A DNA stretch of 64,000 nucleotides, taken from a plasmid. Under the pieces are notes generated by a model. It was not told where the DNA came from. It saw nothing but the letters and a program-made list of their open reading frames with translations, and searched no databases. The DNA is taken from the sequence record NZ_AP019754.1. One strand, written 5' to 3'. Positions 6,545 through 31,854 of this stretch are shown here, one piece after another. Position 1 is the stretch's first letter. Each line of letters opens with the position of its first letter. Both the position numbers and the translations under genes were made by a program.

Positions 6545-6558
6545 GTGGAGTAAATTCG

Positions 6559-8025
6559 ATGTCACGGTCAAATCCGATTCTGGCGTCCTCAGTGCAAAGC
6601 ACTGAGGCTTACCAGCAGGCTATCGCACAAAGCAGTGCGGCAGTGGTTAAGTGGCTGGAACAGCCTGAAATGTATCAGGGTAAAACAGTTGCTGAACTGC
6701 GCGAACGTATCCAATTGGACTTTAATCCCGAGGGCCTGGGCAACCAGGCCGCCATTGAGCGCGCGATTGAGTATTTCCTGAAAGACAGTCTGTCGGTCCA
6801 TCACCCACAGTGTGTGGCGCATTTGCACTGCCCGAGTCTGGTCATTAGCCAGGCTGCCGAGGTGCTGATTAACGCGACGAACCAGAGTATGGATTCCTGG
6901 GATCAGGCGCCTTCTGCCACCCTGATTGAAATGAAGCTGATTGAATGGCTGCGTTCACAGGTGGGTTATCAGGCAGGCGATGCCGGTGTGTTCACCAGCG
7001 GCGGCACCCAGAGCAATCTGATGGGGCTGATGCTGGCGCGTGATGCCTTCTTTGCCCGTCAGGGCCATTCTGTTCAGCAGGACGGACTGATCGGCGATCT
7101 CAGAAAGATCAAAGTCTTTTGTTCAGAGAATGCCCACTTCTCCGTGCAGAAGAACATGGCGCTCCTCGGCCTGGGCTACCAGTCCGTGACGTTAGTGAAA
7201 TGCGATGAGTTTGCACGCATGGACATAACCGATCTGGCTGACAAACTGGCACAGTCGAAAGCCAATAATGAACAGGTGCTGGCCATTGTCGCGACAGCAG
7301 GCACCACCGACGCCGGTGCTATCGATCCGCTGCGTGATATCGTCAAACTGGCCGCAGAGCAGAAAATCTGGGTGCACGTTGACGCGGCCTGGGGCGGTGC
7401 ATTGCTGCTGTCAGAGAAGTATCGTCATTATCTGGACGGGCTGGACCTGGTGGATTCCGTTACGCTGGACTTCCACAAACAGTTTTTCCAGACCATCAGC
7501 TGCGGTGCTTTTCTGTTAAAAGAAGCCCGTCACTATGAGCTGATGCGCTATCAGGCGGCATACCTGAACTCTGAGTTTGATGAAGCACAGGGCGTGCCGA
7601 ATCTGGTTTCGAAATCGTTGCAGACCACCCGTCGTTTTGATGCGCTGAAACTGTGGATGGGACTGGAAGCCCTCGGTCAGAAGCAGTACGCCGCCATTAT
7701 CGACCATGGCGTAACGCTGGCTCAGCAGGTGGCGCAGTTTGTTGAGCAGCACGACGCGCTGGAACTGGTTATGAAACCTCAACTGGCGAGCGTCCTGTTC
7801 CGTTATCGTCCACAACAGATGGCGGAGTGGAGCGATGCCGACGTTGCGCTATTCAATCAGCGTATTGGCGATGCTCTGCTGGAATCAGGTCGCGCCAACG
7901 TTGGCGTGACCGAGCATAACGGCGTTACCTGTCTGAAAATGACGTTGTTAAATCCAACCGTGACGCTGGAAGATATTACCGTCCTGCTGGCACTGCTTGA
8001 GAAAACAGCTCAGTCATTACGCTAA
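6559..8025 (+). CDS. ddc: L-2,4-diaminobutyrate decarboxylase (group II PLP decarboxylase)
   Basis: The ORF track starts at TTG 6541; ATG 6559 (MSRSNPIL) has GGAG 10 nt upstream. Motifs SGGTQSNLMGLMLAR and DAAWGG...DFHKQF with the PLP-lysine context. Together dat-ddc is the 1,3-diaminopropane pathway. Confidence 0.85.
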   Translation: MSRSNPILASSVQSTEAYQQAIAQSSAAVVKWLEQPEMYQGKTVAELRERIQLDFNPEGLGNQAAIERAIEYFLKDSLSVHHPQCVAHLHCPSLVISQAAEVLINATNQSMDSWDQAPSATLIEMKLIEWLRSQVGYQAGDAGVFTSGGTQSNLMGLMLARDAFFARQGHSVQQDGLIGDLRKIKVFCSENAHFSVQKNMALLGLGYQSVTLVKCDEFARMDITDLADKLAQSKANNEQVLAIVATAGTTDAGAIDPLRDIVKLAAEQKIWVHVDAAWGGALLLSEKYRHYLDGLDLVDSVTLDFHKQFFQTISCGAFLLKEARHYELMRYQAAYLNSEFDEAQGVPNLVSKSLQTTRRFDALKLWMGLEALGQKQYAAIIDHGVTLAQQVAQFVEQHDALELVMKPQLASVLFRYRPQQMAEWSDADVALFNQRIGDALLESGRANVGVTEHNGVTCLKMTLLNPTVTLEDITVLLALLEKTAQSLR

Positions 8026-9388: not shown

Positions 9389-11038
9389 TTACAGCGCCAT
9401 ATCGTGCTGCGCCGAGGCTGGGGCTTTTTCGCTGTTAGCAGCGGGCGCTTCAGTTGGCTGATTGCCCATCTGAATAACCGGCGGCTTGGTCAGCTGCAGC
9501 GTTGCTGCCGTTTCATCCCAGACCTGCTGCGTGAGCGCAGGGTTGTCGTTCAGTTTCTGGCCGTAAGCAGGAACGATTTTACGGATTTTTTCCTGCCATT
9601 CTGCTGACTTGAATTGTTCCGGGAACAGTTTCTGCATCACATTGATTGCGATAGGTGCAGCCGTGGATGCGCCAGGCGATGCACCCAGCAATGCGGCAAC
9701 GGTTTTCTGCTGATCGGTCACAATTTCCGTACCCAGTTTCAGCACGCCGCCTTTATCCGCATCCTTTTTGATGATCTGCACGCGCTGACCGGCCTGAATC
9801 AGTTTCCAGTCTTCTTTCTTCGCTTCAGGATAGTACTCTTTCAGCGCGGCAAAACGGTCATCATCGCTCAACATAACCTGACCGATCAGGTATTTGACCA
9901 GGTCAAAGTTATCCATGCCTACGTGGGTCATCGGCATAAAGTTGTGCGTGGTCGTTGTGCTCAGTAAATCAAACAACGAACCATTTTTCAGGAACTTGGT
10001 TGAGAACGTTGCGAAAGGTCCAAACAGCACGACACGCTTACCATCAAGGTAACGGGTATCCAGATGCGGAACCGACATCGGTGGCGCACCCACGGAAGCC
10101 TGACCATACACTTTTGCCAGATGGCGATCGGCAATCGCGCTATTCTCTGTCACCAGGAAGGATCCCCCTACCGGGAAACCTGCGTAATTGTCGGCTTCCG
10201 GAATACCGGTTTTTTGCAGCAGTTTAAGCGCACCGCCACCTGCACCGATAAAGACGTATTTCGCGTCTACGGTACGTTCGCCGCCATTTTTGGCGTCTTT
10301 AATGGTAACGTGCCAGGAATTATCACTGTTACGTTTAAAATCGGTCACTTCCGAAGAGGTTTCCAGGCGGAAATTATCGTTCTTCTTCAGGCTGCCAATT
10401 AACTGACGGGTGATTTCACCATAGTTAACGTCGGTTCCTACTGGCGTCCAGGTAGCAGCCACTTTTTGTTGTGGATCGCGACCTTCCATAACCAGCGGCG
10501 CCCACTGCGCGATCTGCTTGTGATCGGTTGAGAACTTCATGCCCTGGAACAGCACAGTTTTCTGCAGTGCGGCATAGCGTTTCGTCAGATAATCAACGTT
10601 ATCGCCCCAGACAAAGCTCATGTGCGGCGTTGAGTTAATGAACGAACGCGGATTATTTAACACGCCGTCTTTAACCTGAGAGCTCCAGAACTGACGAGAA
10701 ATCATGAAGGCTTCGTTGATTTCCAGCGCTTTGGTCACGTCAATAGAACCGTCTGCACGCTCTGGCGTGTAGTTCAGTTCCATGTTGGCTGAGTGGCCGG
10801 TACCGGCGTTGTTCCAGCCGTTAGAGGATTCCAGCGCTACGCCATCAAGTTTCTCAACCATGATCTGTTTCCAGCCCGGTTGCAGCTCTTCCAGCAGGGT
10901 GCCCAGAGAGGCGCTCATGATACCGCCGCCAATCAGCAGAACATCTGTTTTTTCTGGTGAATTTTCAGCGTGGGTCACTGAAGAAACGAGTAACGCTGCA
11001 AGCGACAGTGCAGGTACAAATTTAGTTGATTTAATCAT
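9389..11038 (-). CDS. mqo: malate:quinone oxidoreductase
   Basis: 549 aa; colinear with E. coli Mqo ([77 protein letters not shown]). Confidence 0.9.
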
Positions 11039-11418
11039 TAGGGATCTACGATTTCGTGGAGAACTAGTTAAAAAAAGTTCCGAAACTTTAAAATATTGTT
11101 ATTTCGTAGTTAATATGAAAATAGTTAAAAAATTAAAAGACAGGGTTTTGCAGTTAATTTAGTTACAAAAGATTAACTTTGTTATCGATATATTTTAACC
11201 ACACAATAAAGGGGCGTTTCGAAATATACAATGCCCTAACACAAATATTCTCTGTGCGACGAATAAACGGAAATGGCGGCGCCTGACCGGAAAGTGGGGT
11301 TATTTACTGCGACAAACGTGCATTAACATGCACGGAACAGGATGAGGCGGTTGACGAAAAAGTATGGGCAGTACACGCAACCTGATGTCCCTGAGCGATA
11401 CGCCTTCAGGGACATGGA

Positions 11419-12363
11419 TTAGTGGCGAATCAGCGCCAGTTCGTCTTCACTCAGACCAGTCATCTTCATAACCGTCTCACGGTCAAGACCGCTTTGAAGC
11501 ATAGTGCGGGCGATTTTCAGCGTCGCTTCGCGCTCTCCCTCTGAGCGGCCTTCTTCGCGACCCAGTTGGATGCCTTTTTCCATGCCTTTTTCCATGCCTT
11601 TTTGTTCGAGCTGCTGCGCAATGGTCATCAGTACGTCTCCGTGTTGCGGCACGCGATGTGCCAGTTCTCTTACCAATGCTTCGGCGTCGGCGGTTTCTCC
11701 CGCCTGCACGATATAGTGTATCAGTGATACGACCTGTGATGAAGAAAGATAGCCCGCCAGTAAGACCGGGACAAGCTTATCAACCAACTCCGCTAAATCG
11801 CGCTGGTGGATATGTTTCTGAAGCAGGGTTAACGCGGCCATACTGCGGTGCTCTGCAATCTCCTCGTCAGGAATAATCGTGACATCCACCAGCGGAAAAG
11901 CCGTGCTATAGAGCCGGTTGGCCAGCGCAGGATCGGTAAATTCATCCAGCCAGCGCGTGGAATAAGGATAAGGACGACGTTTCCCGGTATAGAACAAGAC
12001 AGGGATGACCAGCGGCAATTTTTTATGGCCGGCTTCAAGGTGGCGCTGCATCGCCGCCACGGCATAACGCAGCAGCCTGAATGCCATGTGCTTATCCGGT
12101 GAGGACTGATGTTCGATCAGGACGTGAACATAGCCGTCATCGCCTTGTGCGGTTTTCAGGCTGTACAACACGTCGCTGAAATATTGGCGAAGATCATCTT
12201 CAACGAAAGATCCGGATTCGAGTTTTAACGTGCTGAGATCGCACACGGCCCGTAATTCCGCAGGCAGGTGCAATTCCATAAAATCACGCGCAATCTCTGT
12301 CTGCGTAAGAAACTGGCGGAAGGTGGCATCGTGAGGCGTGGGTGTACTGTTTTTTTTCTTCAT
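11419..12363 (-). CDS. Rpn-family recombination-promoting nuclease / putative transposase (YhgA-like PD-(D/E)XK)
   Basis: 314 aa. N-terminal conserved block HDATFRQFLTQTEIARDFMELHLP...VHVLIEHQS and a C-terminal low-complexity Gly/Glu/Lys repeat region (KGMEKGMEKGIQLGREEGRSEGEREA) typical of Rpn proteins. Confidence 0.8.
   Translation of the reverse strand: MKKKNSTPTPHDATFRQFLTQTEIARDFMELHLPAELRAVCDLSTLKLESGSFVEDDLRQYFSDVLYSLKTAQGDDGYVHVLIEHQSSPDKHMAFRLLRYAVAAMQRHLEAGHKKLPLVIPVLFYTGKRRPYPYSTRWLDEFTDPALANRLYSTAFPLVDVTIIPDEEIAEHRSMAALTLLQKHIHQRDLAELVDKLVPVLLAGYLSSSQVVSLIHYIVQAGETADAEALVRELAHRVPQHGDVLMTIAQQLEQKGMEKGMEKGIQLGREEGRSEGEREATLKIARTMLQSGLDRETVMKMTGLSEDELALIRH
11570..11605. repeat. 12-bp tandem repeat (atgcctttttcc x3, last copy degenerate) inside the rpn C-terminal coding region
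   Basis: Direct reading of the sequence. It encodes the (K/E)KGME iterations on the minus strand. Confidence 0.6.
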
Positions 12364-12622
12364 CTGTCCTGACTCTGCAAGCGCAACCTGGCGTAATGCT
12401 TACCGGCGCGAAAACGAATATGTCGATTCACACATACATTTTGTCCAGCACTCTCTGATTTACCTGCCATGCTGTCAGTATGATTTACAGGCGTTGTCCG
12501 TCATCATGCCAGATATCCACGGTTAAAAGCACGCTAACCTGCTTAATTTACTGGATTTCAGGCGCAAACTGTACTGGTGCGACGACTTCGCGTATGTTGC
12601 AACGCGTACCTCAACACATCTG

Positions 12623-14263
12623 ATGCTGACTATGAATGACTCCCGGCCACAACGATCGTTAAAGAAGCGCCCAATGAAGCTCAGCACCCTGTCGTCATTG
12701 ATGATGGCGGCCGTGCTGATGACCGTAATATTAAGCGTCCATCTGCTTTATTACATCCAGATCGATAACTTCACCCGTTCGCATTTGAAAGATAAAGCGA
12801 TGGCAGTGGCGCGCACTCTGGCCGACAGCCCGGAGATTCAGCAGGCCCTGACGCGGCCAGACGGAAGCACCATCATTCAACCGATCGCGCAGGCAACGCG
12901 AAAACGTAACGATTTGCTGTTTGTCGTCGTCACCGACATGCGCGGTATTCGCTTCTCTCACCCGAACCCTGAAGTGGTTAATCAGCACTTTGTCGGGAAC
13001 GATATTAAACCGGCGTTACGCGGCAGGGAGAATGTCGCGGTGAATCATGGCGTACTGGTTGAGGCGCTCAGGGTATTTACGCCCGTTTTCAATCAGGCGC
13101 ATCAGCAAATTGGCGTGGTGGCCATTGGGATCTCGGTGAATGATGTCGCGGCGCAAATTGCGAAAAGCCGCTGGAATATTCTCTGGACCGTGCTGTTTGG
13201 CGGGCTGGTTGGCATGCTCGGCATATTAATCTTAGTGAAACGCTTAAAGCACATTTTACTGGGATTAGAGCCGTATGAGATTTCCAGCTTGTTTGAAGAG
13301 CGTCAGGCTATTCTCGATTCGATTAAAGAAGGTGTGATTGCGGTTGACGATCAATCCCGCGTCAGCCTGATTAATCAGGCTGCGCAGCAGCTGTTAAAAG
13401 AAACCACCCGCGAAGCATTTCTGAGCGGTGACCGCGTGCCGGAAAATGCACAGATGCTGACGCATTTACGCGATGCATTGCACGAAGGCAAAGCCTCTTA
13501 TGACGAAGAGCTCAACGTACGCGGCAAAATACTGATCAGTAACACCGTGCCGGTGCGCAGTCGTGACAGTATTATTGGGGCAGTGAGCACATTCAGGGAT
13601 AAAACAGAAATCAGCCAGCTAATGCAGCGTCTCGACGGCATGGTAAACTATGTCGATGCACTGCGGGAGCGATCCCATGAATTCATGAACAAGCTGCATG
13701 TGATTCTTGGTCTGCTACACATGAAAAACTATGCGCAGATGGAAGAGTACATCCTTAAAACGGCCAATAACTATCAAACGGAAATAGGTTCGCTGCTACA
13801 GAAGATTAAGTCGCCTGTTATTGCAGGCTTCCTGTTGAGCAAAATTAACCGCGTAACAGATGAAGGCCACCAGCTGATCCTGAGCGAAGCCAGCTATCTG
13901 CCCGACAACGGCAGTGAACAGCAAATCGCAGCACTTATCACGGTACTGGGCAATCTGATTGAAAACGCGCTGGAAGCGCTCGATCCGGAAATGGAAGGGG
14001 AAATCCATGTCATGCTGCATTATCAAAACGGCTGGCTGTCGTGCGAGGTCAGTGACGATGGCCCCGGTATTCCTGCCGATCAGCTCGCCGCCATTTTCGA
14101 ACGCGGCGTCTCTACCAAAGGTGAAGATCGTGGCGTTGGACTGTTTTTACTCAAGCAACAAACGGAAAGTCTGGGCGGTAACGTCAGCGTGGAATCAGAA
14201 CCGGGCGTTTATACTCAGTTTCTGGTTCAGCTTCCGTGGGAAAGAGGGAATATTAGCGAATGA
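12623..14263 (+). CDS. dcuS: C4-dicarboxylate sensor histidine kinase
   Basis: 546 aa; colinear with E. coli DcuS (KRPMKLST, ALAVARTLADSPEI, LLFVVVTDM, SRW.I.W.VLFG, STFRDKTE, HEFMNKLHVILGLLH, GNLIENALEAL). Alternative start at 12632. Confidence 0.85.
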   Translation: MLTMNDSRPQRSLKKRPMKLSTLSSLMMAAVLMTVILSVHLLYYIQIDNFTRSHLKDKAMAVARTLADSPEIQQALTRPDGSTIIQPIAQATRKRNDLLFVVVTDMRGIRFSHPNPEVVNQHFVGNDIKPALRGRENVAVNHGVLVEALRVFTPVFNQAHQQIGVVAIGISVNDVAAQIAKSRWNILWTVLFGGLVGMLGILILVKRLKHILLGLEPYEISSLFEERQAILDSIKEGVIAVDDQSRVSLINQAAQQLLKETTREAFLSGDRVPENAQMLTHLRDALHEGKASYDEELNVRGKILISNTVPVRSRDSIIGAVSTFRDKTEISQLMQRLDGMVNYVDALRERSHEFMNKLHVILGLLHMKNYAQMEEYILKTANNYQTEIGSLLQKIKSPVIAGFLLSKINRVTDEGHQLILSEASYLPDNGSEQQIAALITVLGNLIENALEALDPEMEGEIHVMLHYQNGWLSCEVSDDGPGIPADQLAAIFERGVSTKGEDRGVGLFLLKQQTESLGGNVSVESEPGVYTQFLVQLPWERGNISE

Positions 14264-14979
14264 TCAATGTGTTAGTCGTAGACGATGATGCCATGGTGGC
14301 CGAACTGAACCGATGCTATATCGGGCAGATTGACGGTTTTACCTGCTGTGGTACCGCGTCCACCTTACAGCAAGCCAAAGAGCGCCTGTTGCAGACAGAT
14401 CCGCCCGTTGATCTTATTTTGCTGGATATCTATATGCAGCAGGAAAACGGACTGGACCTGTTGCCAGAGCTGCGCAGTGCGGGGCGTCCGGTTGACGTCA
14501 TTATCATCTCATCCGCTGCCGATGCGGCGACCATTAAAACGTCGCTGAACTACGGCGTTGTGGATTATCTGATAAAACCCTTTCAGTTTTCCCGCTTTGA
14601 AGAGGCGCTGACCGGATGGCGTCAGAAAAAACGGCTGATGGATAATCATCAGTTTTATCAGCAGGCCGATGTGGATCAACTGCTGCATGGTAATCAGGCC
14701 AATGCCAGCGAGACAAAACGCCTGCCAAAAGGGCTGACGCCGCAGACATTACGTACGCTGTGTTTGTGGATTGATGCGCACCCCGGTACCGAGTTTTCTA
14801 CCGATGAGCTGGCCACTGAGGTGAATATTTCTCGCGTATCGTGCCGTAAATACCTGATTTGGCTGGCGCAGAGCAATATTTTGTTTACCAGTATTCACTA
14901 CGGCGTCACGGGACGTCCGGTGTATCGCTATCGTCTGCAGCCGGAGTACCACACGCTTTTACGCCAGTACTGTCAATGA
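14260..14979 (+). CDS. dcuR: C4-dicarboxylate response regulator
   Basis: 239 aa; receiver domain (VLVVDDD...DLILLDIYM) plus a DcuR/CitB-type C-terminal HTH. Overlaps the dcuS stop (ATGA). Confidence 0.85.
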   Translation: MINVLVVDDDAMVAELNRCYIGQIDGFTCCGTASTLQQAKERLLQTDPPVDLILLDIYMQQENGLDLLPELRSAGRPVDVIIISSAADAATIKTSLNYGVVDYLIKPFQFSRFEEALTGWRQKKRLMDNHQFYQQADVDQLLHGNQANASETKRLPKGLTPQTLRTLCLWIDAHPGTEFSTDELATEVNISRVSCRKYLIWLAQSNILFTSIHYGVTGRPVYRYRLQPEYHTLLRQYCQ

Positions 14980-15941
14980 CGGAGCTGAAAGCAATTATCC
15001 AGTAAGGTGAAGTGAAAGTGACGTTGTGACGAGCAAATGACCTGCTTGTCGCGCGTCACGAAGACAGCCTCAATATCAGGATGGCTTTTCAGATACGCAA
15101 TGCCCTTCTCAACGCCCATGCCATAAATCAGCGTGGTATAAATATCACCGTCGATCGACTGATCGGAAATAATGGTCACGCTATACAGCTCATTATCCAG
15201 CGGATAGCCGGTATGTCTGTCAAGAATATGGTGATAACAGACGCCATCCTGTTCGAAGTAACGTTCGTAGATCCCGGACGTCACCACGGATTTGTTCACA
15301 ACATGAATGACACCAATCAGGGCATCCTGGGCCGCAAAAGGGGTTTTCAGACCGATTGCCCATCCCTGCTGCGGCGCATCACGAGGTGCGCCTAACGTTT
15401 GCACGTTGCCGCCAAGGTTAATCAACGCGCTATCGACGCCCTGCTGCTGCAAAAAAGCCTGCACCCGATCGGCAATGTAGCCTTTGGCGATGGCACCCAG
15501 ATCAATTTCCATCCCCGTTTTGTTCAGAAACACCGAACGCGTGTCCGCATCAAGCTGGACATTTTCAGGACAGGTTAAGGGCAACGTTGCCAGTATTGTC
15601 TCCCGCGCAGGAACGCAGTCACCCTGAAAGCCAATTTTCCAGCATTTCACCAGCGGGCCAATCGTGAGATTAAAACTGCTGTCTGGTAACAGACTGACGT
15701 TAAGTGCGCGCTGAATTAAATCAAAGACGGGTTGACTGACGCTCACGGGATGCTGACCGGCAGCATGGTTAATCGCCATCACTTCGGAGTGCGTCCGGTT
15801 AACCGTCAGCAGATTTTCGTACTGTTTGATTAATCTGAAAGCCTGTGCCGCAAGCTTTTCGTCGTGCTCGAATAGCTTAAGCAGAATGGGCGATCCCATC
15901 AGGACGGCGGAATAAGCACAGACTTGCGACTCGGTTTGCAT
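14973..15941 (-). CDS. apbE: FAD:protein FMN transferase (ApbE family), cytoplasmic type (no signal peptide)
   Basis: The ORF track gives ..15983. The in-frame ATG at 15941 gives MQTESQVC.... ApbE family motifs are present (AIAKGY, LINLGGN, SVVTSGIYERYF, HHILDRHTGYP). It lies immediately upstream of, and is co-oriented with, the FMN_bind-containing reductase. Confidence 0.8.
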   Translation of the reverse strand: MQTESQVCAYSAVLMGSPILLKLFEHDEKLAAQAFRLIKQYENLLTVNRTHSEVMAINHAAGQHPVSVSQPVFDLIQRALNVSLLPDSSFNLTIGPLVKCWKIGFQGDCVPARETILATLPLTCPENVQLDADTRSVFLNKTGMEIDLGAIAKGYIADRVQAFLQQQGVDSALINLGGNVQTLGAPRDAPQQGWAIGLKTPFAAQDALIGVIHVVNKSVVTSGIYERYFEQDGVCYHHILDRHTGYPLDNELYSVTIISDQSIDGDIYTTLIYGMGVEKGIAYLKSHPDIEAVFVTRDKQVICSSQRHFHFTLLDNCFQLRH

Positions 15942-16007
15942 AGGCGACACCGCTCTGGGAGGGAATAAAACCGGCACCTGCATGCGGGCAGATGCCGGCG
16001 GTGACGA

Positions 16008-18785
16008 CTAGCGTTTGGCTAACGCCGCAGCGTTGGCACCTGCCAGAATACCAAAGATGATGATGTCCGCAACCGCGTTACCACCGATACGGTTTGCACC
16101 GTGGATCCCGCCGACAACTTCACCGCACGCCCAGGCACCGTGGATTGGCTGTTTATGGCTGTCGAGCACGGCTGTGGTGGTATCAATGGTGACGCCACCC
16201 ATTGTGTGGTGAACACCGGGCGCGATGCGGATCGCATGGAAAGGGCCCTCGTTCAACGGATGACGCAGCGCGGTCTGACGATCGAAGTCCGCGTCTTTCT
16301 GCTGTATCACAAAGCCGTTATAGCGATGCAGCGTTTCTTCCAGCGTCCGGTGTTCCATATTCAGTTTCACCGCCAGCTCGCCTACGGTTGGCGCGCTGAT
16401 AACAAATCCTTTGGCAATATACTCATCGGCCGCTTTGTTATTCATACGAACCTGCTCATCGAAGACAATCCAGGCGCTTTTCTCCGGCAGTGCAATAATC
16501 TGCGCAGAAACTTTATCGCGGGTTTCCATCTCATTACAGAAGCGCTGTCCCGCCTGGCTGACCAGAATGGCCCCACCGCCACGAATAGACTCTGACACCA
16601 GATAGGATGTGGTTTGCTCAACCGTTGGGTGAATCTGAATCTCGCCCATATCCACGGTATCCGCACCAATTTTTTGCAGCATCGCAATGCCTGCGCCAGT
16701 GGCCCCTTTATGGTTGGTGGTGACAAAGCCATCCAGCTCAGGGCGGTATTTCACCACCATTTCCCGGTTGGCGCTGAAGCCACCTGTTGCGACGATGACG
16801 CTTTTCGCATTGAGAATACGGCTGTCGTTGTATTCATCCACCACTTTGACACCGCTGACCGCGCCGTTGTCGAACAAAATTTCCTCTACGGCGGTTTCAA
16901 GCAGGACGTCAATATTACGGTTATTGATATTTTTCACTAACCCACTGATCAGGAAGCCGCCAACGGCCGAGCGGTCGGCAGGACGGTGCGTACGATCAAT
17001 GCTCATGCCGCCGGTGATGGTGATGTCATTCAGTTCGATACCGTGATCGGCCAGCCAGTCAATGGCTTCAGGCGCCAAATCAACGAACTCGCGCAGCAGG
17101 GTCGGGTTGTTTTTGTACTTACCGCCCTTGAGCGTTTCCTCATAAAACAGTTCTTTGCTGTCTTCGATACCTTTCAGTTTCTGAAAACGCGTCTCGGCGG
17201 CGTTCATCCCTACGGATGCTTTGATCGTGTTACCGCCGATAGTGGGCATTTTCTCAATGACAACCACTTTGGCACCTTCATCATGCGCCTGAATGGCCGC
17301 GGCCAGACCGGCACCGCCGCTTCCCACGACCACCACATCATACTGTTGCGGTGCATTGGGATTACCGCCCTCTTCAATCACATGGGCTTTATTTGAAGTG
17401 GTCATTGCACGCGATACTGCTTTTTTCAGGGCCTCACTCTGCGTGGTCGCGCCGGTGATAGCATCAACGTGTGGGCTGTTAGCCACCAGAATACGATTAC
17501 GCAGGCTTTCGAAGGTGGTAGTGAAGTCAACGTCCAGCGTGTCGTCCGGTACCAGCGAGATATCTGTAATACGGTCGGTATCCAGCGTGACGTTGATCTT
17601 CAGCTTAAGCGCTTCGGCCTCAACTTTTTCCTGATAAACACCGGCTTTGTATTTGCGTCCCGACTCACTCATATCGCGAATCATGGCGTCAACCAGCGAG
17701 AAACGCCACAGCGGTTCAGGGATCAATAACGCTTCACGCTGGTTACTGTCGATGTAAAGTTCAAGATGCTCATTATTGATAATGCGATCTGTCCAGTCGG
17801 GATAAGCGATGCAGGCTTTACCAATCGCAACCAGGTCATAGCCTTTTTCCAGCGCTTTTTCCGCATCTTCTTTGTTTACCACACCGCCAACGCCAATGAC
17901 CGGCACTTTCGCCAGCGTTGGGGACCGCATGTTAATAAACTTCTCAATCAGCGGGGTTGGATCGGTGGTATCAACGATAGAGGGGCGCATAAGCTGCCCA
18001 ACAGAAAAGTGGACATAATCGAGCCCGCGTGCCGCCAGCTTTTCCAGTAGGTACAGGGTGTCATCGAAACGGATGCCCGGGACTTCAAGTTCTTCAGGGG
18101 AAAAACGATAGCCGATGATGAACCCGTTATGTGCAAATCGCGCGGCCATTTTATGGGTAATTTCGAGGACTTCCAGCGGAAAGCGGGCACGGTTATCGCG
18201 ACTGCCGCCCCATTTGTCATCGCGTTGATTGGAATTGGGTGAGTAAAATTGCTGTATCAGATAGGTGTTTGCGCCATGAATTTCAACGCCATCAAATCCG
18301 GCTTTAATGGCGCGGTTAACGGCGTCACCAAATTTAGTGATCATGGTATCCACTTCTTCTGCCGTTAGCGCGCGCGGCGTCGTGGCACCCTCACGAGGTG
18401 CGGCAATGGCGCTTGGGGCGACAGGGGTTTTCCCCCCTATCAGCTCAGGCTCAACCATGCGGCCGCCGTGATAGATCTGCAAAATCGCTGTCGAACCTTC
18501 CTGCTTGATGGCGTCAGCAATTCGCTTTAGGCCCGGAATTTTGTTGTCGCTGTCGATGGCTATAGCCCCTGGAAACGCGGGACCTTTTGGATCGATAAAA
18601 CAGCATTCAACAATGACCGTTCCGATGCTGCCAGCACGGGCACGATAATATTCAACCAGTTCACTGGTGACCGTTCCGTCATAAAAACCGGTGCAGGTTG
18701 TCATGGGTGCCATGATCAGGCGATTTTTTAAAACCGCGCCACGCGGCAACGTAATGGAATTGAGAATGGGGGTGAGTGTATTCAT
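16008..18785 (-). CDS. three-domain soluble flavoprotein reductase (N-terminal OYE-like NADH:flavin oxidoreductase, central FMN_bind, C-terminal FAD_binding_2 fumarate-reductase/flavocytochrome-c-type domain); candidate NADH:fumarate (2-enoate) reductase
   Basis: The ORF track starts at TTG 18800; ATG 18785 (MNTLTPILNS) has GGAG 9 nt upstream. OYE motifs: LKNRLIMAPMTT, GFDGVEIHGANTYLIQQF. FMN_bind domain carries the flavinylation motif DAITGATTQS. Dinucleotide-binding YDVVVVGSGGAGLAAA starts the FAD domain, with later catalytic HHTMGG / GEVVGGIHGANRIGGNA motifs. No signal peptide or heme motif. Confidence 0.8.
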   Translation of the reverse strand: MNTLTPILNSITLPRGAVLKNRLIMAPMTTCTGFYDGTVTSELVEYYRARAGSIGTVIVECCFIDPKGPAFPGAIAIDSDNKIPGLKRIADAIKQEGSTAILQIYHGGRMVEPELIGGKTPVAPSAIAAPREGATTPRALTAEEVDTMITKFGDAVNRAIKAGFDGVEIHGANTYLIQQFYSPNSNQRDDKWGGSRDNRARFPLEVLEITHKMAARFAHNGFIIGYRFSPEELEVPGIRFDDTLYLLEKLAARGLDYVHFSVGQLMRPSIVDTTDPTPLIEKFINMRSPTLAKVPVIGVGGVVNKEDAEKALEKGYDLVAIGKACIAYPDWTDRIINNEHLELYIDSNQREALLIPEPLWRFSLVDAMIRDMSESGRKYKAGVYQEKVEAEALKLKINVTLDTDRITDISLVPDDTLDVDFTTTFESLRNRILVANSPHVDAITGATTQSEALKKAVSRAMTTSNKAHVIEEGGNPNAPQQYDVVVVGSGGAGLAAAIQAHDEGAKVVVIEKMPTIGGNTIKASVGMNAAETRFQKLKGIEDSKELFYEETLKGGKYKNNPTLLREFVDLAPEAIDWLADHGIELNDITITGGMSIDRTHRPADRSAVGGFLISGLVKNINNRNIDVLLETAVEEILFDNGAVSGVKVVDEYNDSRILNAKSVIVATGGFSANREMVVKYRPELDGFVTTNHKGATGAGIAMLQKIGADTVDMGEIQIHPTVEQTTSYLVSESIRGGGAILVSQAGQRFCNEMETRDKVSAQIIALPEKSAWIVFDEQVRMNNKAADEYIAKGFVISAPTVGELAVKLNMEHRTLEETLHRYNGFVIQQKDADFDRQTALRHPLNEGPFHAIRIAPGVHHTMGGVTIDTTTAVLDSHKQPIHGAWACGEVVGGIHGANRIGGNAVADIIIFGILAGANAAALAKR

Positions 18786-19176
18786 TGCGATTAACTCCAA
18801 AAATTCAAAACTCGGGAATTCTGTGCGGACGCTTTTTTATTAATAAATAAGTGGTCCGATGTCATAACGCTAATATACCAATTATTTTAGTTTCATAAGT
18901 TTTAATTTTAGTTTTTTAACTTTTAAATATTTCAAGTTTACTATTTGATTAAAGCAGGATCGTGATGTATATTTATTGTTAATCAATAGTTAAGGAAAAT
19001 CAATGAGAATTGTGAAATTAAAAATACTACAATAAAAACAATAGCTTAAACATATAATTCTGTTGCTCACCCTTCCCAAAGTGAAGCTTAAAACCCTTAT
19101 TTTTGCAGTTTAAATATTTGGCTCTAGGTTATTAATAATTTAGTTGTTAAAATTTTAATCGTATAATTTAACTTAC

Positions 19177-19190
19177 TTGATCTGGATCAA
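19177..19190. promoter_or_regulatory. perfect FNR/CRP-family half-site pair TTGAT-N4-ATCAA in the 575-bp AT-rich divergent control region
   Basis: ttgatctggatcaa read directly from the sequence. Lies about 190 bp upstream of the DASS transporter start. Anaerobic dicarboxylate genes are classically FNR-dependent. Confidence 0.4.
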
Positions 19191-19375
19191 TATTCTGTTT
19201 TTAATTAATCGCATCATATCCACATGATCTTTTATAAATGCCTCCATCGCACCAGAGGACAAGTTAAAGAATTATAAGGCATCACGGTTTATTCTCATAA
19301 TTTAGAATAAAGAAGTCCCTATGGACGAATTGCCGGGACGCTGCTCGAATTATCCTTAACACGTAGAAAAATACT

Positions 19376-20884
19376 ATGAAAACACTCTCAAACGTCAAAG
19401 AGCCTCCAAAAGCAGCCCCTGCAACTGCGGGCAAAAATAAAGCACTTATGCTCCTTTTGCCGGTTTTGGTCGCCGTCCTGTTGTTACTCGTCCCCGTGCC
19501 AGCGGGTCTTGAACCTTATGCATGGCACTTCTTTGCCATCTTCGTCGGCGTCATCGTCGGGCTGATTTTTGAACCCTTGCCCGGCGCAGTGATTGGTCTG
19601 ACCGGCGTCGTCGTCATCGCCTTGTTCAGCCAGTTCCTGCTCTTTAGCCCGGCAGAACTGGCCAACCCCAAATTTAAAGTGGCGAGTGAGTCATTTAAAT
19701 GGGCGGTCAGCGGCTTCGGTAACTCAACCGTCTGGCTGATTTTTGGCGCATTCATGTTCGCTGCGGGCTATGACAAGACCCAGTTCGGCCGCCGTCTGGC
19801 ATTGATTCTGGTGAAATACCTGGGCCGCCGGAGTTTAACCCTCGGCTATGCCATCACCTTCGCGGATTTGCTGCTGGCCCCTTTCACCCCGTCGAACACG
19901 GCCCGCAGTGGCGGTACCATTTATCCCATCATTGCCAATCTGCCGCCGCTTTATGGTTCAAAACCCAATGACCCCAGCGCGCGTAAAATTGGATCTTATC
20001 TGATGTGGGTTGCTATCACCGCCGCCTGTATCACCAGCTCCATGTTCCTGTCCGCCCTGGCCCCCAACCTGCTCGCCCTTGCGCTGGTCAAAAGCGTCAT
20101 TGGTTTTGATATCTCCTGGGGAATGTGGTTCCTTGCCTTTTTGCCACTGGGCCTGCTGTTGATTCTGACCATGCCGCTGCTGGCGTACTGGTTCTATCCG
20201 CCTGAAGTGAAGGTGAATGATGAAGTGCCTCGCTGGGCGATTGCTGAGCTGGAAAAACTGGGTAAGTTGACCCGTAATGAAATCCTGTTACTGGTGTTTG
20301 TTGTCTGTGCGCTACTGATGTGGATTTTTGCCACTGCCTGGATCGAACCGGCCATGGCCGCTCTGCTGGTGATTATCCTGATGCTGTGGACCGGGGTACT
20401 TAACTGGAACGACATCACTAGCAATAAAGCCGCCTGGAACACCTTTGCCTGGTTTGCCACACTGGTTGCGCTGGCCGATGGTTTAGCCCGCGTAGGCTTT
20501 ATCGCCTGGCTGGGCAAAGAAGGGGGAATGTTACTGCAGGGATACGATCCTCAAGTGTCGGCTGTGGTGCTGTTGATTGCCTTCTTCCTGCTGCACTACC
20601 TGTTTGCCAGTACCACCGCGCATACGACCGCCTTGCTGCCTGCGATGTTAACCATTGCCGCTTCCATTCCAGGTATTAACATGCCCGTGTTTTGCCTGAT
20701 GCTGTGTACTTCACTGGGTGTGATGGGGATTATCACCCCTTACGGTACCGGCCCAAGCCCTATTTATTACGGCAGCGGCTATTTACCTACGAAAGATTAC
20801 TGGCGTCTGGGCACCATCTTTGGTGCTATCTTCCTGATTGCTATGATGCTCATCGCCTACCCCTGGATGGTGTGGATGTTCTGA
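19376..20884 (+). CDS. DASS-family anion:anion antiporter (TtdT/CitT-like tartrate/C4-dicarboxylate:succinate exchanger)
   Basis: 502 aa polytopic. Colinear with E. coli TtdT over most of its length (VPAGLE, FAVFTGVIVGLI.EP.PGAV, WAVSGFGNS, GRRLALILVK, FTPSNTARSGG.IYPII.NLPPLY, PYGTGPSPIYYGSGYLP..DYWRLG). Confidence 0.8.
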   Translation: MKTLSNVKEPPKAAPATAGKNKALMLLLPVLVAVLLLLVPVPAGLEPYAWHFFAIFVGVIVGLIFEPLPGAVIGLTGVVVIALFSQFLLFSPAELANPKFKVASESFKWAVSGFGNSTVWLIFGAFMFAAGYDKTQFGRRLALILVKYLGRRSLTLGYAITFADLLLAPFTPSNTARSGGTIYPIIANLPPLYGSKPNDPSARKIGSYLMWVAITAACITSSMFLSALAPNLLALALVKSVIGFDISWGMWFLAFLPLGLLLILTMPLLAYWFYPPEVKVNDEVPRWAIAELEKLGKLTRNEILLLVFVVCALLMWIFATAWIEPAMAALLVIILMLWTGVLNWNDITSNKAAWNTFAWFATLVALADGLARVGFIAWLGKEGGMLLQGYDPQVSAVVLLIAFFLLHYLFASTTAHTTALLPAMLTIAASIPGINMPVFCLMLCTSLGVMGIITPYGTGPSPIYYGSGYLPTKDYWRLGTIFGAIFLIAMMLIAYPWMVWMF

Positions 20885-21040
20885 TTGTGTCAAATGCATT
20901 TCGACGCGTCATACGATAACATGCCAACACTTGCCAGCCTGTGCTTATGGCTGGCAAGCATAATAAACAACTCATTCGCCTTTGATGTTGCTCCTGTCAG
21001 CCTGCGTTAACGGAGCCAGCACGTCATTAAGTGAGATACT

Positions 21041-22687
21041 ATGTCGAACAAACCTTTTTTTTATCAGAACCCCTTTCCTCTTGCCCACGAGGACACCGAA
21101 TACTATTTGCTTAGCCCCGACCACGTTTCCGTGGCTGAGTTTGACGGCCAGTCCATATTAAAAGTGGACCCACAGGCATTGACGCTGCTGGCCCAGCAGG
21201 CCTTTCATGATGCGTCTTTTATGTTGCGCCCGGCCCACCAGCAGCAGGTTGCGTCAATTCTGGCTGACCCTGAAGCCAGCGATAACGATAAATACGTCGC
21301 ACTGCAGTTCTTACGAAACTCCGAGATCGCCGCTAAAGGTGTCTTGCCAACCTGCCAGGACACCGGCACTGCCATCATCATGGGCAAAAAAGGCCAGCGA
21401 GTGTGGACCGGTGGCGGTGACGAAGCCGCGCTGTCGCAAGGTATCTACAATACCTATATTGAAGATAACCTGCGTTACTCCCAAAACGCCGCGCTGGATA
21501 TGTATAAAGAAGTGAACACCGGTACCAATCTTCCGGCGCAGATTGACCTCTACAGCGTGGACGGTGATGAATACAAATTCCTTTGCATCGCCAAAGGCGG
21601 CGGTTCCGCCAATAAAACCTATTTGTATCAGGAAACCAAGGCACTGCTCAGCCCGGGCAAGCTGAAAAATTATCTGGTCGATAAAATGCGTACGCTGGGT
21701 ACTGCGGCTTGTCCTCCCTACCATATCGCCTTTGTCATTGGCGGCACCTCTGCCGAAAGTACGCTGAAAACCGTCAAGCTGGCATCGACTCACTACTATG
21801 ATGGTTTACCTACAGAAGGTAACGAGCATGGCCAGGCGTTCCGTGATGTTCAGCTTGAGCAGGAGTTACTGGAAGCGGCGCAGCAGCTTGGGCTGGGAGC
21901 ACAGTTCGGCGGCAAATATTTTGCACATGATATCCGCGTAGTGCGTTTGCCTCGCCACGGCGCATCCTGCCCGGTTGGCATGGGGGTTTCGTGCTCCGCT
22001 GACCGCAATATCAAAGCTAAAATCAACCGCGAGGGTATCTGGATTGAAAAACTGGAAGCCAATCCTGGGCGTTATATCCCTGAAGCACTGCGCAAGCAAG
22101 GTGAAGGCGAAGTGGTTCACATCGACCTGAATCGCCCGATGAATGACATCCTTGCCCAGCTTTCGGAATACCCGGTTTCGACACGTTTGTCCCTGACCGG
22201 GACCATCATCGTTGCGCGTGACATTGCCCATGCCAAACTAAAAGAACGCATTGATAACGGCGAAGGCTTGCCGCAGTACATTAAAGATCACCCTGTCTAT
22301 TATGCGGGTCCGGCCAAAACACCGGAGGGTTACGCATCTGGCTCACTGGGCCCGACGACGGCAGGCCGCATGGATTCGTATGTCGATCTTCTGCAGGCGA
22401 ATGGCGGCAGCAAAGTCATGCTGGCAAAAGGTAACCGTAGCCAGCAGGTCACCGATGCCTGCCACAAGCACGGCGGTTTTTACTTAGGCAGCATTGGTGG
22501 TCCGGCTGCCGTTCTGGCGCAGCAGAGCATCAAGAGTCTGGAGTGCGTGGAGTATGCCGAACTGGGGATGGAAGCTATCTGGAAAATAGAGGTCGAAAAT
22601 TTCCCGGCCTTTATCCTGGTGGATGACAAAGGAAATGACTTCTTCCAGCATATCGAACGTGAGCACTGCTCGCGCTGTGTGAAATAA
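21041..22687 (+). CDS. fumB: class I (Fe-S) fumarate hydratase
   Basis: 548 aa, about 85-90% colinear identity to E. coli FumA/FumB by eye. Called fumB from the dcuSR and anaerobic context; fumA cannot be excluded from sequence alone. Confidence 0.85.
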
Positions 22688-22710
22688 ACACGCGGCGGTA
22701 AACATGATGA

Positions 22711-22740
22711 AACGGCCCCGTTACAGGGGCCGTTTTTTTA
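22711..22740. terminator. rho-independent terminator after fumB (bidirectional with the convergent SDR gene)
   Basis: aacGGCCCCgttacaGGGGCCgttttttt. Confidence 0.7.
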
Positions 22741-23394
22741 TCATCGTTGCAGACGGAGCATGGCGTCGCTTATGCTTTCGTCGCCTTCGGTCAGCTCAAT
22801 AATTTTGCGCGAAATTTGCGGTGTTTCGACCAGAGCCACCAGCGTGGCGGCCACATCCTCACGCGGGACCGACCCGTAAGGAATCGCAAAATCTGCACGT
22901 ACGGTGCCGCGGCCCGCCACATTGGTTAGCGTACCGGGACGAAGAATTACCCAGTCGAGTTGGCTTTCGACCAGGCGAACATCAGCCAGCCGCTTCACGC
23001 GCATGTAATTTTCGAAACCTTCAGATGTCTCTTCGCCACGTGCGGCATCCGGGAAGACTGAAACCAGCAAAAACCGCTTCACACCGGCCTTTTCGGCTGC
23101 GGCAACCGCCAGGGATAACCCCTCGCCGTCAATGGCGTTGGTCAGCTCAATACCCGCGCCTCCCGCCCCAGCGCTAAAAATCACCACATCGTGGCCGGCC
23201 ATTTTCTGCGCCAGTTGATCCACGGTCAGCTTCTGGAGATCCCCCGCCACGGGAACCGCTCCGGCGGATTTAAGTGCTTCGGCCTGCTCAGATTTACGAT
23301 GCAGTGCAGAAACCGCATGTTGCTTAGCGCTGAGCTGTTTCGTCAGATGAGAGCCAACGTTGCCCGCCGCGCCAATAATAAAACATGTCGTCAT
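22741..23394 (-). CDS. NAD(P)H-binding (NmrA/YwnB-like) short-chain oxidoreductase
   Basis: 217 aa; N-terminal IIGAAGNVGSHL Rossmann motif. Confidence 0.7.
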   Translation of the reverse strand: MTTCFIIGAAGNVGSHLTKQLSAKQHAVSALHRKSEQAEALKSAGAVPVAGDLQKLTVDQLAQKMAGHDVVIFSAGAGGAGIELTNAIDGEGLSLAVAAAEKAGVKRFLLVSVFPDAARGEETSEGFENYMRVKRLADVRLVESQLDWVILRPGTLTNVAGRGTVRADFAIPYGSVPREDVAATLVALVETPQISRKIIELTEGDESISDAMLRLQR

Positions 23395-23481
23395 CGTCCT
23401 GCTCCTTTGAAAAAGTCAGATATCAGTATAGACAATAAGCGCAGCGGTAATGAGCGCCCGTCGGGGCGCTTCAGGACATGA

Positions 23482-24546
23482 TTAAGGAATGATTTTCTCA
23501 TGCTTCAGCTTATCGAAAAGCTGAGTGAAGGAATCCAGAGTGCTCCGGTAACCGGTAAAACCCGCCTTGCGACTTTTACTCATGTCGGTGAAGGCTTCCA
23601 TGGGTCGCCCCAGATCCGCGTCGGTGTGCCACCATGAGGCCAGACGCGTGATATCCTGTTCACGCAGGTTTTCACGCTGAGCAAGCGCCTGCCATACGCT
23701 GGCCGCCTCCTGCATGCGCCCGTCAAGCGGCATCATTTTCGCCGGATAAGCGGCAGCCTCGAGACCAAAATACGCCGCCAGTTTTGGCCACATCCAGTTC
23801 CAGCGGAAAACGTCACCGTTTACCGCGTTGAAATCCTGATTTGCCGCGGCCGGGCTGGTCGCCGCCCACTCAAGTTGTTCAGCCAGAAGACCGGCGTCGG
23901 TCATATCCACCACGCCATTCCATTGCTCGGGTGAACCCGGGAAGATAAACGGCCAGCCTTTTTCTTTACATAAGGTGGCGTAAACGGCCAGAGTCTGCCC
24001 CATGTTCATGGCATTTCCGAGCGCATAGCCAATGATGGTATGCGGACGGTGGACGCTCCAGCGATAGCCATATTTTTCGGCGCCAGCGAAGACTTCATCC
24101 TCCTGGGCATAATAGAAGTTGTCTACCGGCTGACGACCCTGCTCTTCGCGGAAAGGCGTGACCGGCACAGCGCCTTTGCCGTAAGCTTCAAATGGCCCCA
24201 GATAGTGCTTAAGGCCCGTCACCAGCGCCACATGTGCGCCCTGGAGGCGTTCGCCAAGCGCTTCAATAACGTTGCGGATCATGCCGCCATTGACGCGGAT
24301 ATTCTCTTTTTCACTGTCCTGGCGCGCCCAGACGCTGAAGAACACTGCATCAGGTTTGACCGCTTTCAATGCCGTTTTTACCGCTTCAGGATCGGTTAAA
24401 TCTGCGGTGAGGTTGCTGCAGCCCTCAGGTACCGCGCTGCGGCCCCGTGACAACCCGCTGACCTGCCAGCCTTCGTTATTTAGCCTTTCTGCTAACGCTC
24501 GACCAATCACACCACTGATTCCAACAATCAAAGCCTGCTTTTGCAT
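23482..24546 (-). CDS. SDR-family NAD-dependent oxidoreductase (epimerase/dehydratase-like, atypical SDR)
   Basis: 354 aa; N-terminal ALIVGISGVIGRALAERL, extended SDR fold. Confidence 0.7.
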   Translation of the reverse strand: MQKQALIVGISGVIGRALAERLNNEGWQVSGLSRGRSAVPEGCSNLTADLTDPEAVKTALKAVKPDAVFFSVWARQDSEKENIRVNGGMIRNVIEALGERLQGAHVALVTGLKHYLGPFEAYGKGAVPVTPFREEQGRQPVDNFYYAQEDEVFAGAEKYGYRWSVHRPHTIIGYALGNAMNMGQTLAVYATLCKEKGWPFIFPGSPEQWNGVVDMTDAGLLAEQLEWAATSPAAANQDFNAVNGDVFRWNWMWPKLAAYFGLEAAAYPAKMMPLDGRMQEAASVWQALAQRENLREQDITRLASWWHTDADLGRPMEAFTDMSKSRKAGFTGYRSTLDSFTQLFDKLKHEKIIP

Positions 24547-31312: not shown

Positions 31313-31680
31313 CTGATACTCCTGTGTTATCGAGAGGTTATCCTGGGACGAGAGCGAAATTCATCCAATCCACAATGAAACAGTATATGTCTCAAAACCC
31401 GACAGAGAAGTGCGACAGGAGCCCACAGAAAAGAGGAGAAGAGAAATAAAAACCGCAGTTCGCCAGAGGCGACAGGCCTTCAGGATCGGCCTGTGAAGGG
31501 GAATAAGGCTTATTTTACTGTCATCTTTCAGGGTGAAATCGCCAGTATTTAGCGCCCGATTGCCGGTAGCAAACCGGTCTGACGCCTTTTTTTTATTTAC
31601 ACAAAAGGCCTGATACTTGATCTGAATCACAAAAATCCGCATGATCTGCATCAAACATTTAAACAGGTATTGAGGCAAAA

Positions 31681-31854
31681 ATGACACTTTATCAACACAT
31701 GCTGGTCTTCTATGGCATTGTTGCCTCGGTAGCGGCACTCATCACCTTCTTTATCGCCAAAGACAAGCTCAGCATCAAACTGTTGAGTGCTTTTCTGGTT
31801 GGTGCAACCTGGCCTATGAGTTTTCCGGTAGCATTAATGTTCGCGCTATTTTGA
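31681..31854 (+). CDS. GhoT/OrtT-family (DUF2566) small membrane toxin, 57 aa, orphan (no ghoS-like gene nearby)
   Basis: Not in the ORF track (under 60 aa). GAGG RBS 8 nt upstream. Translation MTLYQHMLVFYGIVASVAALITFFIAKDKLSIKLLSAFLVGATWPMSFPVALMFALF aligns end to end with E. coli GhoT (MALFSKILIFYVIGVNISFVIIWFISHEKTHIRLLSAFLVGITWPMSLPVALLFSLF; the E. coli sequence is from memory), including the LLSAFLVG.TWPMS.PVAL.F.LF C-terminal signature. Two TM helices. Confidence 0.7.
   Translation: MTLYQHMLVFYGIVASVAALITFFIAKDKLSIKLLSAFLVGATWPMSFPVALMFALF

Follow-up and report, generated by a model that had tools for sequence, protein, structure and literature searches.

A conserved DcuSR-linked gene cluster, probably an anaerobic C4-dicarboxylate module, on a large Pantoea plasmid

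The 64,000-nt stretch of plasmid record NZ_AP019754.1 analysed here, called the window in the following, carries a cluster of six genes coding for the sensor kinase DcuS, the response regulator DcuR, a soluble three-domain reductase (Frd), an ApbE-type flavin transferase, a transporter of the DASS family and a class I fumarase. We consider it likely that the cluster is a conserved anaerobic C4-dicarboxylate module made up of three transcription units around one regulatory region. The gene identities are established, and the catalytic, flavinylation and sensor residues of the products, the gene order and two DNA motifs are conserved. Genes were called from the listing of open reading frames (ORFs) and from profile searches against NCBIfam and Pfam. 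All features are collected in Table 1.

On the plus strand dcuS and dcuR come first, followed by apbE and frd on the minus strand, an intergenic region with a GC content of 29%, and the DASS and fumarase genes, again on the plus strand. Gene content, order and strands had been proposed in a preliminary description of the sequence and were borne out by the ORF listing and the profile searches. There is an overlap of 4 nt between dcuS and dcuR, and dcuR and apbE run towards each other with 7 nt in common. The AT-rich divergent region between frd and the DASS gene had been given a length of 575 bp; the region is real, but frd most likely begins at the ATG at 18785, preceded by GGAG at a distance of 9 nt and also chosen as the start in RefSeq, and not at the TTG at 18800. 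The region is therefore 590 bp long.

Table 1. Features of the six-gene cluster and its regulatory regions, with positions in the window.
Feature	Position	Strand	Basis or remark
dcuS, C4-dicarboxylate sensor histidine kinase	12623..14263	+	NCBIfam NF008298
dcuR, response regulator	14260..14979	+	NCBIfam NF007750
apbE paralogue, predicted cytoplasmic FAD:protein FMN transferase that would flavinylate Frd	14973..15941	-	Pfam ApbE
12-bp GC-rich hairpin followed by TTTATT, between frd stop and apbE	15970..15999	-	terminator-like site in scan
frd, soluble three-domain reductase, putative NADH:fumarate oxidoreductase, 925 aa	16008..18785	-	Pfam domains, NCBIfam
predicted extended -10 of frd promoter, TGgTATATT	18872..18880	-	conserved block in anchored comparison
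inverted repeat AGTTTTTTAACT (AGTT-N4-AACT), candidate DcuR operator	18910..18921		conserved arms, variable spacer
degenerate second FNR-like box TTAAGGAAAATCAA	18990..19003		reads TTGACAAAAATCAA in many other species
perfect FNR box TTGATctggATCAA	19177..19190		sequence scan
predicted -10 element CATCAT, DASS-fumarase promoter	19212..19217	+	conserved block in anchored comparison
DASS-family dicarboxylate transporter, TtdT/CitT type, proposed malate or fumarate:succinate exchanger	19376..20884	+	TIGR00785, Pfam
class I (Fe-S) fumarate hydratase, FumB position	21041..22687	+	NCBIfam FumA equivalog
strong bidirectional intrinsic terminator ending the DASS-fumarase operon	22709..22736	both	11-bp stem and T-run, found on both strands

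Conservation of the cluster was surveyed using one genome per species. This yielded 306 relatives, the best 80 of which were analysed with 10-kb flanks; the spacer between the DASS gene and frd was readable in 75. The full order fumarase-DASS, frd-apbE, dcuR-dcuS was present in 49 of these 75 loci. Pantoea, Erwinia, Izhakiella, Kalamiella and Mangrovibacter have it, as does one of the two Rahnella copies, and it spans at least three families and differing flanks. It was also found on a Rahnella megaplasmid with unrelated flanks and on the chromosome of the Enterobacter cloacae complex. In nearly every surveyed locus the DASS gene is divergent from frd. Since the order is conserved across families with different flanks, this is good evidence of functional coupling. 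The six genes had been proposed to form a unit, and the comparison across Pantoea, Erwinia and other genera gave the same order, making the unit a real and conserved one. The literature we searched, itself covered incompletely, gave no description of the six-gene arrangement, of its spread or of the conserved FNR box and palindrome described below. A smaller arrangement, the DASS-frd pair alone, occurs in Cedecea (there between ampG and cyo genes), Ewingella, Winslowiella and the other Rahnella copy. The reductase was absent from all 5,426 complete Escherichia coli genomes searched.

Rahnella genomes carry two DASS-frd copies (e.g. L031 and L075 in Rahnella sp. AA, L021 and L080 in R. bruchi). 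One copy shares 86–87% identity with the Pantoea reductase and has no apbE, dcuSR or fumarase gene, but a LysR gene lies close by; the other is 75–76% identical and lies within a full six-gene module. On the chromosome of Dickeya dadantii (L091, 5809-13415) frd has two apbE genes, an aldehyde dehydrogenase gene and a TetR regulator gene on its flanks, without DASS, fumarase or dcuSR genes nearby. Reductases 87–88% identical to the Pantoea enzyme are labelled Halomonas binhaiensis, Pseudomonas graminis and Halomonas sp. metagenome-assembled genome (P0046, P0074, P0119, L068); these probably represent mislabelled or contaminated assemblies, or else recent transfers.

The regulatory pair is readily recognised. 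DcuS scored 787 bits against the NCBIfam model NF008298 for the DcuS/MalK subfamily (cutoff 520) and is 62.5% identical to its E. coli counterpart. The ligand residues R107, H110, R147, F120, F149, T101 and M103 of the periplasmic PAS/Cache domain are all kept, as is the phospho-accepting H349 of the kinase, which fits a sensor of C4-dicarboxylates. DcuR reached 448 bits against the DcuR equivalog NF007750 (cutoff 262). Its identity to E. coli DcuR is 74.5% over the whole length and about 80% in the C-terminal part that binds DNA, so that the same recognition sequence is expected in Pantoea and E. coli.

The frd product combines an OYE-like domain (PF00724, residues 23-343), an FMN_bind domain (PF04205, residues 400-466) and a FAD_binding_2 domain (PF00890, residues 488-910), and scored 620 bits against the NCBIfam flavocytochrome c equivalog (cutoff 542). 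No haem or cytochrome domain, no membrane subunits and no signal peptide were found for it. The protein aligned to Shewanella Fcc3 with E = 4e-120 and keeps the equivalents of H365, E378, R381, R402, H504 and R544. In Fcc3, R402, H504 and R544 are assigned to the C4-carboxylate of the substrate, H365 and T377 to the C1-carboxylate, and E378, R381 and R402 to the proton relay (10.1101/2022.01.20.477176). The motif for covalent attachment of flavin mononucleotide (FMN), defined as D-x-x-(S/T)-G-A-(S/T) (PMC12052999), is present in the FMN_bind domain as DAITGAT447 and is invariant in 8 homologues. The catalytic FAD_binding_2 domains of Fcc3 and the Pantoea enzyme are thus homologous with matching active-site residues except T377. 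The electron input differs, Fcc3 being a periplasmic protein fed by a tetrahaem domain, while the Pantoea enzyme is predicted to be cytoplasmic and haem-free and to take electrons from NADH via two FMN. The NADH:acrylate reductase (ARD) of Vibrio harveyi has the same three domains and the same dependence on ApbE. In ARD a Met replaces the C1-carboxylate His (10.1101/2022.01.20.477176) and the proton relay is changed, whereas the Pantoea reductase keeps the residues of the fumarate type.

The apbE gene lies directly downstream of frd. Position 15941, and not 15983, is probably its start, and the resulting length of 322 aa agrees with RefSeq. Its product scored 273 bits against Pfam ApbE and only 127 bits against the NCBIfam equivalog for periplasmic ApbE (cutoff 498), and direct reading of the N-terminus, MQTESQVCAYSAVLMG, revealed neither a signal peptide nor a lipobox. 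The terminator-like hairpin between the two genes may act as a partial terminator that attenuates read-through and lowers expression of apbE relative to frd.

A system of this kind has been characterised in Klebsiella pneumoniae. In its soluble cytoplasmic NADH:fumarate oxidoreductase (FRD), the subject of studies by Bertsova and colleagues from 2014 and 2020, the OYE domain oxidises NADH, the covalent FMN on the FMN_bind domain relays the electrons and the FAD_binding_2 domain reduces fumarate; the enzyme is induced only in the absence of oxygen (10.1101/2022.01.20.477176). A cytoplasmic ApbE lacking a signal peptide is needed to flavinylate it (PMC12052999). The Pantoea Frd resembles this enzyme (KPK_2907, UniProt B5XRB0) in its three-domain architecture, the Dxx(S/T)GA(S/T) motif, the cytoplasmic location, the residues for fumarate and proton relay, and the dedicated ApbE without a signal peptide. 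Anaerobic induction, experimental in Klebsiella, is predicted in Pantoea from the FNR box, which matches the published behaviour. Bertsova and colleagues reportedly found in 2020 that fumarate or malate induces the K. pneumoniae enzyme, which would match control by DcuSR. Given the match in architecture and in maturation by ApbE, the reductase-ApbE pair corresponds to a known and characterised system, and to call these parts non-canonical, as was done initially, was overstated.

The DASS protein scored 496 bits against TIGR00785 (cutoff 199) and 521 bits against Pfam Na_sulph_symp. Among E. coli homologues it is 55.5% identical to TtdT, 48% to CitT and 35% to YbhI. The two closest, TtdT (L-tartrate:succinate) and CitT (citrate:succinate), are succinate antiporters, each encoded beside enzymes of an anaerobic pathway ending in succinate. 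By analogy the Pantoea carrier would exchange malate or fumarate for succinate. These substrates appear the likelier ones because the gene is accompanied by those of a fumarase and a fumarate reductase and no ttdAB or citrate lyase genes were found here (ttdAB searched within the window). The fumarase scored 1200 bits against the NCBIfam FumA equivalog (cutoff 1105), carries the NCBI name FumA, and is 88.0% identical to FumA and 86.9% to FumB. The gene had been named fumB: it does code for a class I fumarase, but the sequence cannot tell fumB from fumA and only the position after a transporter gene fits the name.

We then analysed the 590-bp region from which both operons diverge. It contains the only perfect FNR box of the window, where 0.08 would be expected. 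A perfect FNR box is located 156–225 nt upstream of the DASS ATG in all 49 DcuSR-linked loci and in 2 of the 26 others. In the linked loci the half-sites are invariant and the central four nucleotides vary (CTGG, CCAG, CTAG, CAAG, CGAG, CCTG and others). When 51 sequences were anchored on the box, a conserved block, tCGCAT(C/T)ATA, appeared at a fixed distance from it. Its hexamer CAT(C/T)AT lies 35–40 nt from the start of the box, placing the box centre near -41; for a class II site of the form TTGAT-N4-ATCAA the centre is expected at about -41.5. From this we infer a transcription start of the DASS-fumarase operon near 19224 with a 5' untranslated region of about 150 nt, and regard the FNR box as a candidate class II activator site. 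The intergenic region showed no visible conservation until the sequences were anchored on the FNR box or on the -10 element; exact 8-12-mers conserved across genera were not found in it, and an Rfam search of 11000-23500 returned no RNA family.

The degenerate second FNR-like box has counterparts about 205–265 nt upstream of frd in many species (e.g. L026, L027, L033, L043), including variants with the DASS-frd pair only, and is perfect in L043. As an activator site for frd this box was rejected, its distance to the conserved -10 element being a misfit for class II geometry and its sequence being degenerate in Pantoea ananatis.

On the frd side, the extended -10 block is kept in the anchored comparison including Rahnella and Mangrovibacter, and also in Enterobacter; the frd transcript would start near 18865. 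Approximately 30 nt upstream of this -10 element lies the AGTT-N4-AACT inverted repeat, whose centre precedes the frd ATG by about 130 nt and the predicted start by about 50 nt. Allowing at most one mismatch, 47 of the 49 DcuSR-linked loci, compared with 3 of the 26 others, have the repeat at a distance of 115–180 nt upstream of the frd ATG. Exact copies upstream of frd are found at 130 nt in Enterobacter and, although DASS, fumarase and dcuSR genes are missing nearby, at 140 nt in Dickeya, where the copy in D. dadantii reads AGTTAATTAACT. The same exact AGTTAATTAACT occurs once in the 570-bp dcuR-dcuB intergenic region of E. coli, centred 386 nt upstream of the dcuB ATG; by our own estimate the chance of an exact match in a region of this size is about 0.01. 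Janausch and colleagues reportedly described in 2004 a footprint of phosphorylated DcuR at about -359 to -410 of dcuB, which would cover this E. coli copy. In the window, three exact copies of AGTT-N4-AACT compare with 0.55 expected. The repeat is thus a candidate for the DcuR operator, though not an established one.

One of the exact copies, at 11076-11087, precedes the mqo ATG of P. ananatis by 43 nt. A version with one mismatch, AATT-N4-AACT, is kept about 88–91 nt upstream of mqo across Pantoea (L005-L013, L025, L045, L066). Malate:quinone oxidoreductase may share the same regulator, although the repeat is weak evidence for this, given the AT-rich DNA and the close relationship of the species.

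In E. coli the corresponding locus is dcuS-dcuR-dcuB-fumB, and the DcuSR regulon comprises dcuB, fumB, frdABCD and dctA. Sensor and regulator are orthologous in the two organisms, a transporter-fumarase pair adjoins dcuSR in both, and in each a long AT-rich regulatory region, of 570 bp in E. coli and 590 bp in Pantoea, carries AGTT-N4-AACT far upstream of the transporter gene. In Pantoea, however, a DASS gene takes the place of dcuB between dcuSR and the class I fumarase gene, the soluble NADH-linked reductase and its flavin transferase are inserted divergently, and no membrane quinol:fumarate reductase is present at the locus. It had been stated that the transporter is of the DASS type instead of DcuB and that the soluble enzyme is the only reductase at the locus; this held, and no homologue of DcuB, DcuC or FrdBCD was found anywhere in the window. 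We also considered the E. coli dcuR-dcuB region as a relic of the frd/DASS divergent region and rejected this, since an nhmmer profile built from 26 intergenic regions gave 0.7 bits, no better than shuffles. The only word common to the E. coli dcuR-dcuB and the Pantoea frd-DASS intergenic regions is the 16-nt TAGTTnnnnAACTTTT.

Taken together, the module could work as follows. DcuS would sense external fumarate, malate and related C4-dicarboxylates and phosphorylate DcuR. Phosphorylated DcuR, probably at AGTT-N4-AACT, and FNR at the perfect box would then activate the divergent frd-apbE and DASS-fumarase operons under anoxia and in the presence of substrate. The DASS carrier would bring in malate or fumarate and export succinate, the fumarase would dehydrate malate to fumarate, and Frd, with FMN attached covalently by the cytoplasmic ApbE, would pass electrons from NADH via the FMN of the OYE domain, the covalent FMN and flavin adenine dinucleotide (FAD) to fumarate. 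No proton-motive force would be generated; the gain would lie in the regeneration of NAD+, leaving more carbon free for ATP-yielding formation of acetate. Import, dehydration by FumB and NADH-coupled reduction had been suggested in the preliminary description. This physiology appears well supported as a prediction, and the same reading has been published for the K. pneumoniae enzyme (10.1101/2022.01.20.477176; PMC12052999). The accompanying phrase, without energy conservation, fits as far as proton-motive force is concerned but needs qualification, as NAD+ regeneration lets a larger share of pyruvate go to acetate with formation of ATP.

Several points weigh against this interpretation. An identity of 55% to TtdT does not fix the substrate of the DASS protein or its antiport, and NCBI labels the protein a sodium-coupled symporter. 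The residue equivalent to T377 of Fcc3 is a Ser in Frd, with the hydroxyl retained. The Klebsiella FRD sequence was not among the 240 homologues listed and the plasmid search returned only an unrelated OYE protein in Klebsiella, so that orthology of the Pantoea and Klebsiella enzymes rests on architecture and residues. Linkage to DcuSR is not obligatory, as seen from the variants with DASS and frd only in Cedecea, Ewingella and the first Rahnella copy. Regarding the operator, published DcuR footprints are AT-rich and dissimilar. Our literature searches for a DcuR consensus found only the site at LEE1 of enterohaemorrhagic E. coli and no validated consensus, and that site, TTATCTCACATAATTTAT, is unlike the AGTT-N4-AACT palindrome (PMC10636207).

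Some of these points would also agree with the six genes being neighbours but not one regulon, DcuSR mainly controlling dctA or chromosomal dcuB and frdABCD while frd and the DASS gene follow oxygen via FNR or another regulator. The DASS-frd pairs without local dcuSR, here including Winslowiella, the Dickeya frd-apbE genes without dcuSR or DASS and the lack of a validated DcuR consensus all point this way. We nevertheless hold it to be unlikely, because dcuSR is adjacent in 49 surveyed loci across families with differing flanks, because the palindrome tracks the DcuSR-linked type and recurs in the dcuB regulatory region of E. coli, and because the K. pneumoniae enzyme reportedly responds to fumarate or malate. 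The module might also handle a different substrate, for instance tartrate entering through the TtdT-like exchanger, mesaconate or another 2-enoate, in which case the physiological acceptor of the reductase would be something other than fumarate. The closest E. coli transporter is indeed an L-tartrate:succinate antiporter, class I fumarases also act on D-tartrate and mesaconate, relatives of Frd with the same architecture reduce acrylate or cinnamate, and the Ser in place of T377 could be read in the same sense. Against this, the C1-carboxylate His that is replaced in the acrylate enzyme is kept together with all C4-carboxylate and proton-relay residues, ttdAB is absent from the window and the DcuS pocket has the residues for C4-dicarboxylates, which makes a different substrate quite improbable.

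A further question concerns the origin of the module. The unit had been described as bracketed by an Rpn nuclease gene and AT-rich DNA and hence as possibly acquired horizontally. The rpn gene (11419-12363) is real and adjoins dcuS, but it lies on one side only. Among the surveyed loci, those of P. ananatis and P. allii are the only ones with rpn between mqo and dcuS; elsewhere in Pantoea, P. vagans and P. agglomerans included, mqo adjoins dcuS directly with a spacer of about 295 bp. The mqo-dcuS intergenic region of P. agglomerans aligns to 10980-11249 and 12566-12598 of the window, so that approximately 11250-12565 represents a lineage-specific insertion of about 1.3 kb carrying rpn. The AT-rich tracts are the conserved upstream region of mqo (11039-11250) and the frd/DASS promoter region (18786-19375) with its conserved elements, and the module genes, with a GC content of 51–54% and 58–65% at third codon positions, match their neighbours and the window mean of 52.7%. 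A 10.4-kb region of the window is 99.5% identical to large plasmids of many P. ananatis strains and the reductase is 100% identical to that of plasmid pPANA1 of P. ananatis LMG 2665, indicating that the window is part of the large Pantoea plasmid LPP-1. The core genes named for LPP-1 include the neighbours of the module, dat-ddc (5159-8025) and mqo (9389-11038) (PMC3505739), and LPP-1 has been reported to be domesticated and vertically inherited (PMC12612815). The module is found on plasmids of 73 Pantoea records and is chromosomal in Erwinia, P. dispersa and P. eucrina. Its location on a plasmid, the patchy distribution in Enterobacterales with no reductase in E. coli and the two diverged Rahnella copies would suit a recently acquired island delimited by rpn and AT-rich DNA. 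In view of the restricted rpn insertion, the composition, the promoter elements, the place of the module among the LPP-1 core genes and its chromosomal relatives, such an island is very improbable, and the evidence gives no support to recent acquisition. In view of its patchy distribution and the diverged copies in Rahnella, the module may have passed between families long ago.

A bolder version of the module hypothesis seems doubtful to us, though it is the more far-reaching one. In it the module would be a self-contained DcuSR regulon with AGTT-N4-AACT as the genuine operator of DcuR, which would account for the remote DcuR site in front of E. coli dcuB. Both functions of DcuB, the antiport of C4-dicarboxylates against succinate and the co-sensing with DcuS, would fall to the DASS carrier. 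Were Erwiniaceae to depend on the soluble, non-respiratory route in place of frdABCD, these plant-associated bacteria would reduce fumarate for redox balance alone.

If the proposed C4-dicarboxylate module is real, DcuSR, the model system for sensing C4-dicarboxylates, controls a second kind of fumarate pathway, cytoplasmic, NADH-linked and non-energy-conserving, in many Enterobacterales. Among these are Pantoea and Erwinia, which are associated with plants, and the Enterobacter cloacae complex, which is of clinical relevance. The presence of chromosomal frdABCD and dcuB would decide whether the module replaces or supplements fumarate respiration. The analysis yields testable sites, the candidate DcuR operator and the putative class II FNR promoter, and offers a natural case for studying DcuS in partnership with a transporter that is neither DcuB nor DctA. 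Since the individual proteins are all of known types, the gain lies in pathway organisation and regulation and not in new biochemistry. That a locus linked to DcuSR has a DASS exchanger where DcuB would stand, and a soluble NADH-linked reductase in addition, would interest specialists in C4-dicarboxylate metabolism without being surprising.

Two further observations were made in and around the cluster. The 156-nt spacer between the DASS and fumarase genes had no terminator-like site in the scan; it contains a perfect 10-bp hairpin, CTTGCCAGCC...GGCTGGCAAG, at 20930-20958. As this hairpin is not followed by a T-run, a role in mRNA stability or processing is likelier than one as a terminator. 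About 9 kb downstream of the module lies a gene for a toxin of the GhoT/OrtT family (31279-31452 in L001, approximately 31680-31850 in the window). In E. coli ghoST directly adjoins dcuS; the GhoT/OrtT gene near the Pantoea module may be a coincidence or a remnant of a shared ancestry of the neighbourhood.

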